NCBI GenBank assembly: GCA_963619325.1
Contig: CAVEVQ010000007.1
Location: 12,612-76,611 of the forward strand
Source of the DNA: Bacteroidaceae bacterium
GTDB lineage: Bacteria; Bacteroidota; Bacteroidia; Bacteroidales; Paludibacteraceae
Length of the DNA: 64,000 bases
Reading direction: 5' to 3'
Part shown: positions 38,862 to 43,550 of the stretch, in pieces
Numbering within the stretch: position 1 is the first letter of the stretch
Layout of the letters: the number at the start of each line of letters is the position of its first letter
Translations under genes and position numbers: made by a program
Notes under the pieces: generated by a model
What the model saw: only the letters and a program-made list of their open reading frames with translations
The model's database searches: none
Told to the model about the DNA's origin: nothing

Positions 38862-40718
38862 TTATTTCACAATAAATGTTTGCAATACATTATCAAGCTC
38901 TTGTTCACATTGTGAATCTCGATTTTTTGAGAAATCATCGTCCATCTGTGCATTCGTAAACTGCACCATACCATCATAGAAATAATTTGCGATATTTCCC
39001 GCTTTGTCAATCACACCAACCCCAGTATAGGAATCAACCACTAAATATTTACGGTCTCGCACACTATCCAACGGCATCCCAATAGAATAATCTTCTACGG
39101 GGTTTTGAACGTTAAACATATCACGTAATAAAGTAGGCACTACATCATAATGGGAAGTCCATTCTGTTACGACTTTAGGGTCTTTTTCCGGGGCATAATA
39201 TAAAAAAGGAACCTGTAGTTGTGCTGCAGAAAAATTACCGGTATGCCCCCAATATCCATGATGATTATCATTGAATTCCTGAGCATGATCACCCGTTATC
39301 ACAATTATCGTATTTTCTAAAAGACCTTTCTCTTCAACCTCCTCTAATACCAAGCCTACTATACTGTCCACATAATAGACCATATTTTTATATAGATTAT
39401 AAAACTCTTCTGAATCTGTATCTATACCCAGCCGTTCATAGTGGGCCGCCGTCCAAGCAGGTTGAAACGGTCCGTCAAAACCATCCGGCTTTATCATACT
39501 GTGAAGTGAATCAAAGAAAAGAAAAGAAAAAAAGCACTGCGTTGTATCTCTATTAGCTATAAATTTTCTGAATTTTATAGCCAAATTTTCATCTCGCAAC
39601 CACGCATTTAAACCCTCATTCGCATTACATTGATTTTTATAAGAACAAAAAACGGTCTCATCCAACGGAGGGTTTCGTAATGAGGCACTCGGATAAATAT
39701 GTACATCGTAATTATGTTCTCTAAACATTCGCATTAATACAGGCTCTACCTGTTTTGCACGAAAATCTCTGAAATAAGTACCAGGCAATCCATAGAAAAG
39801 TGAAAAAACTCCTGTCCTTGTACCATTACTTCCACTATAATGTTTCTTATACTGACATGTTTTTTTTGCGAAACGATATATATTAGGAGTACAAATGGAA
39901 TCCATCGTTGATGCTCGCCAAGAATCTAATCCGATAATCAATAGATTTCTTTTCTTATCTTCCCCTATTATCTTGTTTTTGGGATAGTTATAAGAATTAC
40001 CAATAGTATGCAATTCACAATATTTATCATTCATCCCAAAAATTCTTTCAGGATACACAGGTGCGACTAACGGGAAATTTTTCTCTACCGATAAAACAAC
40101 ACGTTTCTCTGAGAAGAGAGCATAAGTCCGATATATCTGGACATAGACAAATGCAAATGTCCATACAACAAACAACGTCGTTAAAAATCTTTTTTCAAAA
40201 ACAACAGGTATTTTATCTGTTATCTTCTCTGACAGAAAAAAAACACCTCTCTGCAACAATACTAAAACTATCGTAACGACAAAAAGCAAAAAATAAAGAA
40301 TCCAAGACAACTCAAAGACCTGTCCCGAATCTGGTCCAAAAACCTGCTCTAAAACGTATGAATTAAGATGAAAACGATAGAGAGAAAATACATACGAATC
40401 AATCGTCAGAATGACAAGAGACAAGACGGACAACACAATGGTTATCCATTTCGCCAACGAATTTTTTTTTGTCAAAAAAAGTATTGGAAGATAGATTAGT
40501 AGAAATGGCAGAAAAGTCAAAAATAAGAAATGACTAATGCAAGCCAAAACACTATACATAGGCAAAAAACTTGCAGTTTCAGCGAATAATATAGCAAAAT
40601 ATTTAGTTGAAATCAATACAACGAAAAAGGAATTCAGTAAACTATACCAAATTCCTACCTTTACATATCTATCACTCAGAACATTACGGACCAAGTTTAG
40701 CATTTTTGACAAAAACAT
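38862..40718 (-). CDS. YejM/PbgA-like inner-membrane protein (DUF3413 N-terminal TM domain + alkaline-phosphatase/sulfatase-fold domain)
   Basis: 618 aa. ~5 N-terminal TM segments including the YejM-like stretch DSYVFSLYRFHLNSYVLEQVF. The periplasmic domain carries LLIIGLDSWRAS, SGSNGTRTGVFSLFYGLPGTYF and IIVITGDHAQEF. Confidence 0.75.
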   Translation of the reverse strand: MFLSKMLNLVRNVLSDRYVKVGIWYSLLNSFFVVLISTKYFAILFAETASFLPMYSVLACISHFLFLTFLPFLLIYLPILFLTKKNSLAKWITIVLSVLSLVILTIDSYVFSLYRFHLNSYVLEQVFGPDSGQVFELSWILYFLLFVVTIVLVLLQRGVFFLSEKITDKIPVVFEKRFLTTLFVVWTFAFVYVQIYRTYALFSEKRVVLSVEKNFPLVAPVYPERIFGMNDKYCELHTIGNSYNYPKNKIIGEDKKRNLLIIGLDSWRASTMDSICTPNIYRFAKKTCQYKKHYSGSNGTRTGVFSLFYGLPGTYFRDFRAKQVEPVLMRMFREHNYDVHIYPSASLRNPPLDETVFCSYKNQCNANEGLNAWLRDENLAIKFRKFIANRDTTQCFFSFLFFDSLHSMIKPDGFDGPFQPAWTAAHYERLGIDTDSEEFYNLYKNMVYYVDSIVGLVLEEVEEKGLLENTIIVITGDHAQEFNDNHHGYWGHTGNFSAAQLQVPFLYYAPEKDPKVVTEWTSHYDVVPTLLRDMFNVQNPVEDYSIGMPLDSVRDRKYLVVDSYTGVGVIDKAGNIANYFYDGMVQFTNAQMDDDFSKNRDSQCEQELDNVLQTFIVK

Positions 40719-40745
40719 TTTTACTTCGTACTTTCAAAAATAAAT

Positions 40746-41429
40746 CTACAACGAAATCTCATAAGCCAATCCAACGGTTGAAACATCCTGAGGATTCTTC
40801 ACGTTGAAAGCGTCGTCGTAGTAATAAAATAATTTCAAAGCGTTCTTTTTATTAAACTCATATTTCAAAGCAGCCTCATAGCGCATCATATCAATCACAT
40901 TCCCTTTGTAATAGTTTGTTCTATAGAACAATTCAGCAGAGACAGACGGATATAACGGAATCTTAGGCACTTTGTAACCTACTGAAATAGAATTTCGCCA
41001 ATAGTTTTTCCACTGTTTGTTTTCTTCCTTCTCTGGGCGATAGCTCATCTGATAACGAGAACGCCAGGCGAAAGAAAAACGTCGCACAGAATATTTAAGA
41101 TTCGTATAACCTTGAAACCTTTGGTTAAAGAAATAATTTTCATCCCTATTTCTCGCAATCGCATAATAGGAAACACCCACCTTAAAAATTTTTCTCACGA
41201 TAGCATACGATACATCTGCTTTCGAAGAAATTTTTTCTATTTCTGTGGAGTTATCCACTAACGTGAGAGACTCCGTAAATCCAACTTCCAATCTTTTGAA
41301 AAATTTCTTTGATATTTCGACTTCGTATCGAGTGGAAAAATCGCAATCGTCTCTTTCGGCAAAGAGACTCGCATAACTGCCGAAAGAGATGACCACCAAT
41401 ACTAATATTCTAAGAAAAATCTGCTTCAT
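40746..41429 (-). CDS. outer-membrane beta-barrel protein (DUF2490-like)
   Basis: Start moved to ATG 41429 (MKQIFLRILVLVVISFGSYASLFA signal peptide), which removes the overlap with the upstream gene. Alternating aromatic/charged beta strands. The family name is tentative. Confidence 0.6.
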   Translation of the reverse strand: MKQIFLRILVLVVISFGSYASLFAERDDCDFSTRYEVEISKKFFKRLEVGFTESLTLVDNSTEIEKISSKADVSYAIVRKIFKVGVSYYAIARNRDENYFFNQRFQGYTNLKYSVRRFSFAWRSRYQMSYRPEKEENKQWKNYWRNSISVGYKVPKIPLYPSVSAELFYRTNYYKGNVIDMMRYEAALKYEFNKKNALKLFYYYDDAFNVKNPQDVSTVGLAYEISL

Positions 41430-41460
41430 TCGCTTCTTTTCTCTATTTATTATAGGATTC

Positions 41461-42141
41461 CTATCCGTTAAAATCTTTTGCACGTGTGATTTGATCTATC
41501 GTATTAATTTCCTTTGTGTCAGATTCGTAGTAAACTTTCACAAGAGCTATGTCCTTCAAAAAATCTATATAACCCACCTCACACTTGGAAACCTTCAGAC
41601 CTGTACGATTTTTGATATCACTAACCATTTCTTCGTATCTATCAGGTTTAATCAATTCTATCTTCTCATATTTTATCAATTTACATGAACTTTTTGATAC
41701 AATACGAGTTTTCTCCATCACCCAAGTCATCAAAACGAACAACCCATTTGTAACAAGCAATTCAACATAACTTACACTGACAGCCAGTGCGTTGATAACA
41801 GATAAACCGATAATCAAGAACAAATACGTCATCTCTCGAATAGGCACCGTGTCTGTACGGTAACGGATGATTCCAAAGATAGCGAAAAGTCCTAATGCCA
41901 AACCAATCTGCAGCTTCTCGCTTCCCAAAAGGAAAATAAGCAAAAAGACAGTCGTACTAATCAGTGTGAAAGTGAAAACATAATCACGTCTCTTCGACTT
42001 GCCATAATACAACCAAACAATGATCAATGATGTAACAACTACGTTCAATGCAAAACGTGCTATCAACTCCCAAAGTCCGTCTACGTTGATTATTGAATTG
42101 CCAAACAATTCATAATCTAATATACTTGTCAAAAGCTCCAT
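41461..42141 (-). CDS. DUF4956 family polytopic membrane protein
   Basis: 226 aa. ~4-5 TM segments followed by a soluble C-terminal region. The conserved-looking GLFAIFGIIRYRTDTVPIREMTY matches my recollection of DUF4956, the usual partner of bacterial VTC proteins. Confidence 0.65.
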   Translation of the reverse strand: MELLTSILDYELFGNSIINVDGLWELIARFALNVVVTSLIIVWLYYGKSKRRDYVFTFTLISTTVFLLIFLLGSEKLQIGLALGLFAIFGIIRYRTDTVPIREMTYLFLIIGLSVINALAVSVSYVELLVTNGLFVLMTWVMEKTRIVSKSSCKLIKYEKIELIKPDRYEEMVSDIKNRTGLKVSKCEVGYIDFLKDIALVKVYYESDTKEINTIDQITRAKDFNG

Positions 42142-42206
42142 ATTTTTATTTATATTTGTTTACTATTTTTTTAATTCTATAGGCTAAGATTTTACAATCT
42201 TTGATT

Positions 42207-42965: not shown

Positions 42966-42968
42966 AGG

Positions 42969-43367
42969 CTACTCTGTTATATACTCAAACACCTTATAAT
43001 TTTTCTGTTTTCCATTTGGCAAAAAAGTAGTTTGAGATTTCTTCTTGCCATTCTCAAGATACTCATACTTCATAGTCTTCTCCAACTTGTCATACTCATC
43101 ATAGACAGACTCTTCAATACATTTACCTGCTTCGTTATACTTGTAGGTAACACGCTCCTTTTGATCGCCAGTTGACGAATATTCTACTTCTTCAACTTTT
43201 TTTCCATTCTGATAGATGGTTTTATGATCCAAAGATTTCTTCTTCCCCTCTACACGCCATTCATTCACCTGCTTTAGAACTTTCCCGTCAAACTTCTTCT
43301 GTGCATATAAAGACATAGCAGAGAGAGACAAGAAAACAGCCACAATTGATATAATTGTTCTTCTCAT
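42969..43367 (-). CDS. small secreted repeat protein, unknown family
   Basis: 132 aa. Signal peptide (IVAVFLSLSAMSLYAQ) and YD/MORN-like short repeats (TYKYNEAGK, KYEYLENGK, YQNGKKVEEVEY). 3 nt upstream of the VTC gene. Confidence 0.6.
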   Translation of the reverse strand: MRRTIISIVAVFLSLSAMSLYAQKKFDGKVLKQVNEWRVEGKKKSLDHKTIYQNGKKVEEVEYSSTGDQKERVTYKYNEAGKCIEESVYDEYDKLEKTMKYEYLENGKKKSQTTFLPNGKQKNYKVFEYITE

Positions 43368-43442
43368 GGTACTTTATTTTATAGTTTTATTAACGTTTTA
43401 CTTTATTTTACCTATCCCATTTTGAATTTTACTTTCACACTT

Positions 43443-43450
43443 CAAACTTA
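43443..43450 (-). promoter_or_regulatory. candidate -7 promoter element (TAAGTTTG on minus strand) for the VTC cluster
   Basis: Plus-strand caaactta is TAnnTTTG on the minus strand, 76 nt upstream of the ATG at 43367. Confidence 0.3.
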
Positions 43451-43510
43451 CCTGCATTTACCTCGTTTAGTAAAATTTTTCAATGAATGGCAAATATATA
43501 TTTAAAATAC

Positions 43511-43550
43511 AAAAAAGGGGCTTAGTTTTAATACTAAACCCCACTTTTTT
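43511..43550 (-). terminator. rho-independent terminator closing the dnaA / pRiA4-ORF3-like unit
   Basis: 10-bp stem ggggcttagt / actaaacccc (one mismatch), 6-nt loop. Flanked by A6 (43511-43516), which reads as a U-run on the minus strand. Confidence 0.65.

Follow-up and report, generated by a model that had tools for sequence, protein, structure and literature searches.

Introduction

Polyphosphate (polyP) in bacteria is regarded as a polymer of the cytoplasm, and its synthesis is attributed to the enzymes PPK1 and PPK2. In yeast, the VTC complex couples the synthesis of polyP to its translocation through a basic channel (PMC9911596), and a recent review of the evolution and origin of VTC considers eukaryotes only. 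VTC-type genes have also been noticed in Gram-positive bacteria, where cotH, a "polyphosphate polymerase", DUF4956 and DUF4832 form an accessory cluster beside the pel operons that streptococci, clostridia and bifidobacteria carry; NELoc-2 of Clostridium perfringens likewise has VTC and CotH genes, and the VTC–DUF4956 pair is briefly discussed for Streptococcus intermedius (S. intermedius pel preprint). Here, we analyse a cluster of VTC, DUF4956 and DUF2490 genes found in a 64,000-nucleotide (nt) stretch of DNA from a Bacteroidaceae bacterium (GenBank assembly GCA_963619325.1, contig CAVEVQ010000007.1, positions 12,612 to 76,611 of the forward strand), hereafter referred to as the window, and we report that it belongs to a module that is real, conserved and not unique to this window.

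The cluster comprises five minus-strand open reading frames (ORFs) separated, in the ORF listing of the window, by gaps of 3, 65, 31 and 27 nt. In that order they encode a small secreted protein (p132), a VTC-type protein, a DUF4956 membrane protein, a DUF2490 β-barrel and a YejM-like protein. The same ORFs and gaps had been given in a preliminary description of the window, made from the sequence alone, which regarded the five genes as a candidate unit for the synthesis and export of polyP. The strings that it quoted (RIDTKFLV, KVRIREY, FLEVKKK, RLTIDFDIKF, CIVEVKQDG, FAIFGIIRYRT, GLDSWRAS and ITGDHAQEF) are all present in the translations, and Pfam recovered every family that it had named, i.e., VTC, DUF4956, DUF2490, DUF3413 and Sulfatase.

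We tentatively propose that the module contains an ATP-driven polyP polymerase, which is docked on an inner-membrane partner and feeds the periplasm or the cell surface. In the literature searched, neither bacterial VTC-domain proteins nor DUF4956 or DUF2490 were the subject of any experimental study that we found. The preliminary description had likewise known of no experimental account of such a module, which holds for the literature searched; the existence of a cotH–VTC–DUF4956 cluster near the pel operons of Gram-positives was, however, known before. For Gram-positives the finding has thus been partly anticipated in passing, whereas the form with an outer-membrane barrel and surface proteins, found in Gram-negatives, appears to be undescribed.

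VTC, DUF4956 and DUF2490 genes form a conserved unit in Bacteroidales

A scan of one genome per species yielded 80 Bacteroidales loci with VTC relatives, of which the 69 with enough flanking DNA were counted. The ORFs of these loci were searched with the window proteins, then by iteration with hidden Markov models (HMMs) built from the matches, and the divergent DUF2490 copies were confirmed by Pfam. The VTC and DUF4956 genes are adjacent in all 69 loci, and a DUF2490 gene follows the pair in 67 of them. The order and strand of the core genes are thus preserved in 67-69 of the 69 loci, which come from different species, and this is far beyond chance. A p132 homologue is present in 52/69 loci, mostly immediately upstream of the VTC gene and sometimes downstream; a Cthe_2159-domain lipoprotein in 31/69; a transthyretin/prealbumin-like lipoprotein of about 240 amino acids (aa) in 20/69; and the YejM-like gene in 11/69. 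On these counts over 69 species, the conserved unit is (secreted accessories)–VTC–DUF4956–DUF2490, and the window carries a reduced four-gene form of it, p132–VTC–DUF4956–DUF2490, next to an unrelated YejM-like neighbour. The gene-neighbourhood analysis that the preliminary description called for upholds its VTC–DUF4956 linkage and the barrel, but not the YejM-like gene.

Other species also possess members that the preliminary description lacked, namely the Cthe_2159-type lipoprotein, the transthyretin-like lipoprotein and a protein with a type IX secretion system (T9SS) tail. The fuller form is exemplified by locus L089, where a divergent AraC regulator lies ahead of the series T9SS-tailed protein–Cthe_2159 protein (909 aa)–transthyretin-like lipoprotein–p132–VTC–DUF4956–DUF2490. 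Beyond Bacteroidales, a contig from a more distant member of the Bacteroidota keeps VTC–DUF4956–DUF2490 in the same order. There (L092:9069-11023), a LytS-type histidine kinase and a LytTR response regulator come after the trio on the same strand with overlapping gene ends, and may be a dedicated regulator of the module. None of the 69 loci has a linked phosphate-regulon (Pst, Pho), phosphatase, ppk, ppx, CotH or glycosyltransferase gene.

Both families are large, with at least 7,700 clusters each at 90% identity for VTC and DUF4956, and a joined VTC+DUF4956 query against 1.84 billion representatives gave 5,087 matches at E <= 0.001 (representatives at 50% identity). Bacteroides salyersiae and Parabacteroides leei are among the species with module loci. 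The annotation of Bacteroides thetaiotaomicron places a DUF4956 and a DUF2490 gene side by side (BT3498-BT3499), and both show a non-significant change in an iron-limitation table.

The VTC-type protein resembles the tunnel domain of yeast Vtc4

The 252-aa protein (42207..42965, minus strand) has neither a signal peptide nor a transmembrane segment, and is presumed to be the cytoplasmic, polyphosphate polymerase-like catalytic subunit of the module. The following lines of evidence support its assignment as a VTC-type triphosphate tunnel metalloenzyme (TTM), as the preliminary description had suggested. First, it matches the Pfam VTC family (PF09359) with an E value of 1.5e-25 and 90.6 bits, for a cut-off of 23, over profile positions 1-232 of 235. 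Second, its AlphaFold2 (AF2) model, computed with a 26-sequence alignment, displays the strand pattern of a closed tunnel (pLDDT 93.5, pTM 0.89). Third, the top 13 matches of this model in a Foldseek search of the PDB are the tunnel domains of yeast Vtc4, Vtc3 and Vtc2 (E 1.3e-12 to 2.6e-10, TM 0.58-0.64), led by the Vtc4 structures 3g3r/3g3q/8i6v (E 1e-12, TM 0.64) and followed by E. coli YgiF (E 7.7e-10), then CYTH, ThTPase and plant TTM3. The link to Vtc4 comes only from Pfam and this comparison of folds; searches of PDB sequences with the single protein or with a 26-sequence profile returned chance matches only. Fourth, the candidate catalytic residues are kept.

The numbering of Vtc4 was fixed on a tunnel-domain sequence checked to be 100% identical to 3g3q and 8i6v, and the equivalences were taken from local and sub-profile hhalign alignments, the global hhalign alignment being meaningless. 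In this way, R31, D33, K35, R94 and R96 of the window protein correspond to R196, T198, K200, R264 and R266 of Vtc4; E107, K109, F158 and R160 to E279, K281, Y359 and R361; and R171, D175, S224 and K225 to R373, D377, S457 and K458. The pairing of E198/K200 with E426/K428 rests solely on the VEVK/LEVK motif, matched by eye. Three of the Vtc4 residues, R264, R266 and E426, are those mutated to inactivate Vtc4 for cryo-electron microscopy (PMC9911596). The residues aligned to K200, R264, R266, K281, R361, R373, E426, S457 and K458 of Vtc4 are invariant in 26 close homologues, and the Vtc4-equivalent tunnel positions are invariant or nearly so in 124 representatives sharing less than 50% mutual identity, in which the further tunnel residues R90, K92, K111, K119, R121, T162 and T173 are also invariant or all but so. 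This pattern clearly points to selection for tunnel chemistry.

A VTC-domain paralogue (38% identity) was also observed without adjoining DUF4956 or DUF2490 genes, beside a convergent gene with a TPM_phosphatase domain (L094:7001-7801), which indicates that stand-alone VTC proteins also exist in these bacteria.

The DUF4956 inner-membrane partner and its fusions

The 226-aa product of the next gene (41461..42141, minus strand) matches Pfam DUF4956 (PF16316) over the whole profile (positions 1-169 of 169, E 2.4e-54). Its AF2 model comprises five helices (20-49, 52-72, 75-96, 101-119 and 125-144), followed by a C-terminal β-α-β-β ACT-like domain (151-206). The Foldseek matches of this model are weak and cover the C-terminal domain only, where they point to ACT-type regulatory domains (TyrA, AcuB and the AHAS small subunit), in agreement with an account of a Streptococcus DUF4956 homologue that gives it four membrane helices and an ACT domain (S. 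intermedius pel preprint). The most conserved stretch of the family is GLFAIFGIIRYRT…PIREMTYLF, which is invariant or nearly so, along with N117, N132 and E143. Counts of charged residues in the window protein and in 27 representatives predict a cytoplasmic side for loop 1 (KSKRR), loop 3 (RYRT…PIRE) and the segment that follows helix 5, with the acidic N-terminus lying outside. DUF4956 would accordingly be a five-helix protein with its N-terminus out and its C-terminus in, the basic loops and the ACT-like domain facing the tunnel enzyme.

Two kinds of fusion involve DUF4956. The top match of the joined VTC+DUF4956 search is a 483-aa VTC–DUF4956 protein with both Pfam domains in that order (P0241, L091:8001-9452), found on a metagenome contig that, to judge by its predicted proteins, may stem from a high-G+C organism, possibly an actinobacterium. 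In a Prevotella-like lineage, DUF4956 and DUF2490 share one uninterrupted ORF of 460 aa (L084:6468-7880; P0270, P0391-P0404), with an internal signal-peptide-like segment, MQRTCVLVALMGLFVTVGYAQQ, between the two parts. The cluster of this ORF has 36 members on many independent contigs, so that it is not a one-off assembly error. It supports a tight functional tie between the inner- and outer-membrane components, and is consistent with a cytoplasmic C-terminus of DUF4956.

The outer-membrane barrel and the secreted accessories

The DUF2490 gene (40746..41429, minus strand) encodes a predicted outer-membrane β-barrel of 227 aa (PF10677, E 3e-13, 50.3 bits for a cut-off of 29.8). The 31-nt gap that precedes it is valid if translation begins at ATG 41429; this start yields a clean signal peptide, MKQIFLRILVLVVISFGSYASLFA, and is the one called in the NCBI record. 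The mechanical ORF, which extends back to GTG 41483 and overlaps the DUF4956 gene, is probably not used. DUF2490 is listed as a putative porin family of unknown function (TCDB 1.B.81).

The first gene (42969..43367, minus strand) encodes p132, a lysine-rich protein of 132 aa with a signal peptide and without a lipoprotein cysteine, which is made of short Y-x-Y/E-Y…G-K hairpin-like repeats. It has no match above threshold in Pfam or NCBIfam, and the sub-threshold matches of p132 and its homologues (MORN_2, DUF2963 and RHS_repeat) fit short β-hairpin repeats; a profile of 18 homologues found no relative of it in the PDB. The isoelectric points (pI) are 9.7 for the VTC protein, 9.2 for p132 (8.9 for the mature form) and 9.5 for the barrel, and the basic character of all three proteins is compatible with the handling of a polyanion.

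In many Bacteroidales copies, the module also includes a large lipoprotein with a Cthe_2159 domain (PF14262, E 1e-44 to 1e-60), which Pfam describes as carbohydrate-binding; such copies occur at L022, L025, L027, L055, L070 and L089, among others (e.g., L089:3980-6709). Some copies add the transthyretin/prealbumin-like lipoprotein of about 240 aa, the small T9SS-tailed protein and the divergent AraC-type regulator. None of these additional members is present in the window. Every accessory gene product is secreted, a lipoprotein or T9SS-sorted, and the VTC protein has no export signal. These extracytoplasmic accessories indicate an envelope destination.

A proposed pathway and its alternatives

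In the pathway that we infer, which involves polymerase rather than hydrolase chemistry, the 252-aa VTC enzyme would sit at the cytoplasmic face of the inner membrane and polymerise the γ-phosphate of ATP into polyP, like yeast Vtc4. It would work on a DUF4956 oligomer, whose invariant basic cytoplasmic loops (KSKRR and RYRT…PIRE) would take the nascent chain and whose membrane helices would pass it to the periplasm, the C-terminal ACT-like domain being a candidate regulatory sensor. The DUF2490 barrel and the secreted accessories, i.e., the basic p132 protein here and elsewhere the Cthe_2159 β-helix lipoprotein, the transthyretin-like lipoprotein and the T9SS-tailed protein, would then be responsible for handling, retaining or displaying the polymer, be it in the periplasm, at the outer membrane or on the cell surface. 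This pathway is also favoured by the travelling of the VTC–DUF4956 pair with secreted CotH kinases next to the Gram-positive exopolysaccharide (pel) operons.

Several points weigh against this pathway. First, position 33 is an aspartate in 118 of the 124 representatives and a glutamate in four, whereas Vtc4 has a threonine, so that the β-1 motif reads R-x-D-x-K here versus R-x-T-x-K in Vtc4. Hydrolytic CYTH enzymes have E-x-E-x-K, and hydrolytic TTMs carry a metal-binding glutamate at that position; hence, the acidic residue is hydrolase-like. Second, the tunnel residues are common to polymerising and hydrolysing TTM enzymes, so that their conservation does not fix the chemistry, and the residue pattern alone cannot decide between a polymerase and a hydrolase. 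Third, the DUF4956 model is moderately confident (pLDDT 74). With this protein, sequence searches for the VTC membrane domain or solved transporters retrieved its own Pfam family only, even at E 10, and no PDB sequence, and a Foldseek search of the PDB gave nothing at E <= 0.001 and no match for the membrane part. A relationship of DUF4956 to the eukaryotic VTC membrane domain or to a solved transporter has therefore no support in Pfam, PDB or Foldseek, and DUF4956 is at best an analogue of that domain. The preliminary description had viewed the catalytic and membrane parts of VTC as split into adjacent genes, which implies a homology of the membrane parts that these searches do not support. 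Fourth, the N-out topology drawn from the charges of DUF4956 conflicts with the N-in topology implied by the VTC–DUF4956 fusion P0241. Because of this conflict, and because P0241 is a singleton on one contig, we downgraded it from a proof of VTC docking on DUF4956 to weak evidence. Fifth, p132 is missing from a quarter of the loci. Sixth, a 2026 preprint describes buried networks of two cations, two anions and tyrosine in 238 AlphaFold models of DUF2490, so that an open pore or conduit is not to be assumed. Finally, the literature searched holds no biochemical or genetic data on any bacterial member.

The acidic residue 33 speaks for the idea that the VTC-like enzyme is a tri-/polyphosphatase, or another triphosphate-cleaving enzyme, of a module that imports or detects condensed phosphate from outside the cell: capture would fall to the barrel and the secreted binding proteins, DUF4956 would pass the phosphate inward and the tunnel enzyme would cleave it at the cytoplasmic face. 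We regard this as unlikely. The fold and the sequence are nearer to Vtc4 than to any hydrolytic TTM, even though YgiF and CYTH come next among the structural matches and most of the characterised bacterial TTM proteins are hydrolases. The accessories resemble binding proteins more than enzymes, but the module has no linked Pst, Pho or phosphatase gene in any of the 69 loci, and the Gram-positive versions are attached to operons for exopolymer synthesis, not to uptake systems.

The failure to detect channel homology in DUF4956 and the possible plugging of many DUF2490 barrels fit another view, namely that of a tethered synthase whose polyP stays in the cytoplasm, DUF4956 doing no more than anchoring the enzyme and regulating it through its ACT-like domain, and the barrel and secreted proteins sharing regulation only. 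A cytoplasmic location of polyP has been considered for S. intermedius, as the other VTC subunits are missing there (S. intermedius pel preprint). This view also appears improbable to us, as the order of the DUF4956 and barrel genes, which is kept in 67/69 loci and extends to a single ORF in the 36-member cluster, is hard to account for without a shared envelope task, and as five conserved helices with invariant polar or basic positions (N117, N132, E143 and RYRT) exceed the needs of an anchor.

It is quite improbable that the tunnel enzyme phosphorylates an acceptor other than phosphate, for instance a lipid or a surface polysaccharide, or supplies a phosphoryl donor to extracytoplasmic kinases, with no free polyP being made. 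We know of no TTM enzyme with such an activity, and the 69 Bacteroidales loci show no CotH or glycosyltransferase gene in linkage with the module, against which stand the company of secreted CotH kinases and Pel polysaccharide genes kept by the Gram-positive pair, and that of the Cthe_2159 domain, carbohydrate-binding according to Pfam, kept by the Bacteroidales module.

A YejM-like neighbour outside the conserved unit

The fifth gene (38862..40718, minus strand) encodes a YejM/PbgA/LapC-like protein of 618 aa, with a five-helix DUF3413 membrane domain and a periplasmic domain of the alkaline-phosphatase fold (Pfam DUF3413, 2.8e-30; Sulfatase, 2e-32). It is homologous to the E. coli and Salmonella YejM structures 6xlp, 5i5h and 6v8q (E 1e-39) over residues 17-355 and 433-561. 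Its score with the NCBIfam model LapC_YejM_PbgA is 188 bits, far below the cut-off of 825, and we read it as a distant YejM homologue, not as a confirmed equivalent. It has ITGDHA where E. coli YejM has ITAGRG, and with this GDH motif kept the metal site looks intact, as the preliminary description had thought; the protein may be catalytically active.

All 11 YejM-like cases fall in the clade that also keeps the dnaA–PRiA4 genes upstream of the module, and one clade member, L009, lacks the gene. As the YejM-like gene is found in 11/69 loci of one clade, and as its homologues elsewhere lie in unrelated contexts, it is best regarded as an independent envelope gene and a lineage-specific neighbour, which stands outside the conserved module. 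Given the 27-nt gap, it may nevertheless be co-transcribed with the module here. The proposal of the preliminary description that all five genes form one conserved functional unit is not borne out: a pathway in which the YejM-like enzyme is integral, and transfers or attaches a phospho-polymer to a periplasmic envelope acceptor, is highly improbable, since the same-strand 27-nt gap without a terminator between the barrel and YejM-like genes, the possibly active GDH motif in place of AGR and the linkage kept in 11 related species are outweighed by the absence of the gene from 58/69 loci (L009 included), by the occurrence of homologues with 38-41% identity among unrelated genes, with no VTC nearby, in other Paludibacteraceae, and by the full-length homology to YejM/PbgA, whose established role is in lipopolysaccharide homeostasis.

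Boundaries and genomic context of the locus

The module is preceded by dnaA (45624-44182, minus strand) and, directly downstream of dnaA, by a PRiA4_ORF3-like gene (43601-44152, minus strand) encoding a very acidic protein of 183 aa (pI 4.05). An intrinsic-terminator-like hairpin on the minus strand (43517..43542), composed of GGGGTTTAGTATTAAAACTAAGCCCC followed by the T run TTTTTTGT, with a 10 bp stem including five G-C pairs, appears to mark the end of the upstream dnaA/PRiA4_ORF3-like unit and the upstream boundary of the module. The preliminary description had rightly seen a hairpin here (given as 43511-43550), but it follows the PRiA4_ORF3-like gene, so that it does not close dnaA directly. 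The TAAGTTTG motif that it had pointed out is present (43443..43450, minus strand); it fits TAnnTTTG, the Bacteroidetes -7 promoter consensus, and is a candidate promoter 76 nt upstream of the first ATG. A sigma-70 promoter scan was uninformative (22 sites versus 23 expected), this being the wrong promoter type for this phylum. The internal junctions, with gaps of 3-65 nt on one strand, include no convincing terminator in the terminator scan of the five-gene run. The terminator-like sites lying in ORFs (40656-40628, 40449-40426 and 41790-41774) are weak, with three G-C pairs, and were rejected (five found versus 3.5 ± 2.1 expected). Antisense ORFs over VTC and DUF4956, e.g., the one of 99 aa at the DUF4956/DUF2490 junction (41389-41688, plus strand), recur in relatives only as shadows of the true, conserved genes and are unlikely to be genes themselves.

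The fifth ORF is followed by a 137-nt gap with a TAAATTTG motif, which suggests that the gene downstream of the YejM-like gene has its own promoter. Next come genes for an HU-CCDC81-type DNA-binding-like protein (307 aa) and, after 3 nt, a DMP19-like protein of 167 aa (37294-38724, minus strand). This pair lies directly after the module in L009, where the YejM-like gene is missing. Convergent with the cluster, a 663-aa signal-peptide protein (35206-37197, plus strand) has a ComEA-like helix-hairpin-helix near its N-terminus and a long Tyr/Asn-rich C-terminal part without a family. On the far side of dnaA (45805-55477), the annotated contig shows MlaD-like, Amidase_3, LptD_2, glycogen synthase and glycogen phosphorylase genes. 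The dnaA–PRiA4 pairing is present in 15/69 related loci, and the dnaA–PRiA4–module synteny also in L087/L088. From one end of the window to the other, the cumulative GC skew declines steadily and does not turn near dnaA.

No Rfam family or tRNA was found across the whole window, and PADLOC gave no match on any of six proteins, so that a reading as anti-phage defence was dropped. The identical DNA also occurs in the metagenome-assembled genome (MAG) GCA_963624835.1, and among named relatives the closest are rumen and gut MAGs of the Paludibacteraceae.

Significance and comparison with known systems

It is conceivable, if doubtful, that Bacteroidota and, in another form, Gram-positives have a dedicated system in which polyP is synthesised at the inner membrane by a relative of Vtc4 with the non-homologous DUF4956 partner, and is delivered across the envelope to the periplasm, the outer membrane or the cell surface. 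If true, this would be the first bacterial secretion or deposition pathway for an inorganic polymer, and would give bacteria another way than the PPK enzymes, the second one, of making polyP; it would also mean an extracytoplasmic pool of polyP in a dominant phylum of the gut and rumen microbiota. On the same condition, the module would be a plausible prokaryotic source of the VTC catalytic domain of eukaryotes, and it is relevant to where their VTC polymerase came from. Since it is present in cultivable, genetically tractable species, the hypothesis is directly testable.

Like PPK1 and PPK2, the module would make polyP from ATP at a membrane-associated site. The fold and mechanism of the PPK enzymes are, however, unrelated to those of the VTC protein, and their products stay in the cytoplasm; we know of no envelope partners of PPK1 or PPK2. 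With the hydrolytic TTM/CYTH enzymes (E. coli YgiF, plant TTM3 and thiamine triphosphatase), the window protein shares the tunnel superfamily (Foldseek E 8e-10 to 1e-6) and the acidic residue located two positions before the β-1 lysine. The similarity in structure and sequence is nevertheless lower than that to Vtc4, Pfam places the protein in VTC and not in CYTH, and those enzymes have no dedicated membrane partner. As regards YejM/PbgA/LapC, the comparison concerns the fifth gene only: the DUF3413 membrane and alkaline-phosphatase-fold periplasmic architecture is the same, whereas the window protein scores 188 versus the 825 bits of the NCBIfam cut-off and, unlike E. coli YejM, has a GDH motif at its metal site.

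The Gram-positive pel-adjacent cluster, cotH–VTC–DUF4956(–DUF4832), has in common with the Bacteroidales form the VTC and DUF4956 pair and the association with extracytoplasmic proteins. The Bacteroidales form differs from it by the absence of CotH, DUF4832 and pel genes, and by the presence of the DUF2490 barrel, of p132 and, optionally, of the Cthe_2159 and transthyretin-like lipoproteins.

The yeast VTC complex (Vtc4/Vtc3/Vtc1; PDB 3G3Q, 7YTJ and 8I6V) offers the best structural match, in that both have an eight-stranded triphosphate tunnel, the equivalents of K200, R264, R266, K281, R361, E426 and K458 are kept in the window protein, and the tunnel enzyme is tied to a membrane partner. The bacterial module differs from it in several respects. 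First, it has no SPX domain (Pfam, five proteins), and its membrane domain is not fused to the enzyme. Second, no similarity was detected between DUF4956, with its five helices and ACT-like domain, and the three-helix VTC membrane domain. Third, the β-1 motif is RxDxK instead of RxTxK. Fourth, the target of the bacterial module would be the periplasm or the cell surface, not the vacuole, and the module adds an outer-membrane barrel and secreted accessories to the tunnel enzyme and its membrane partner.

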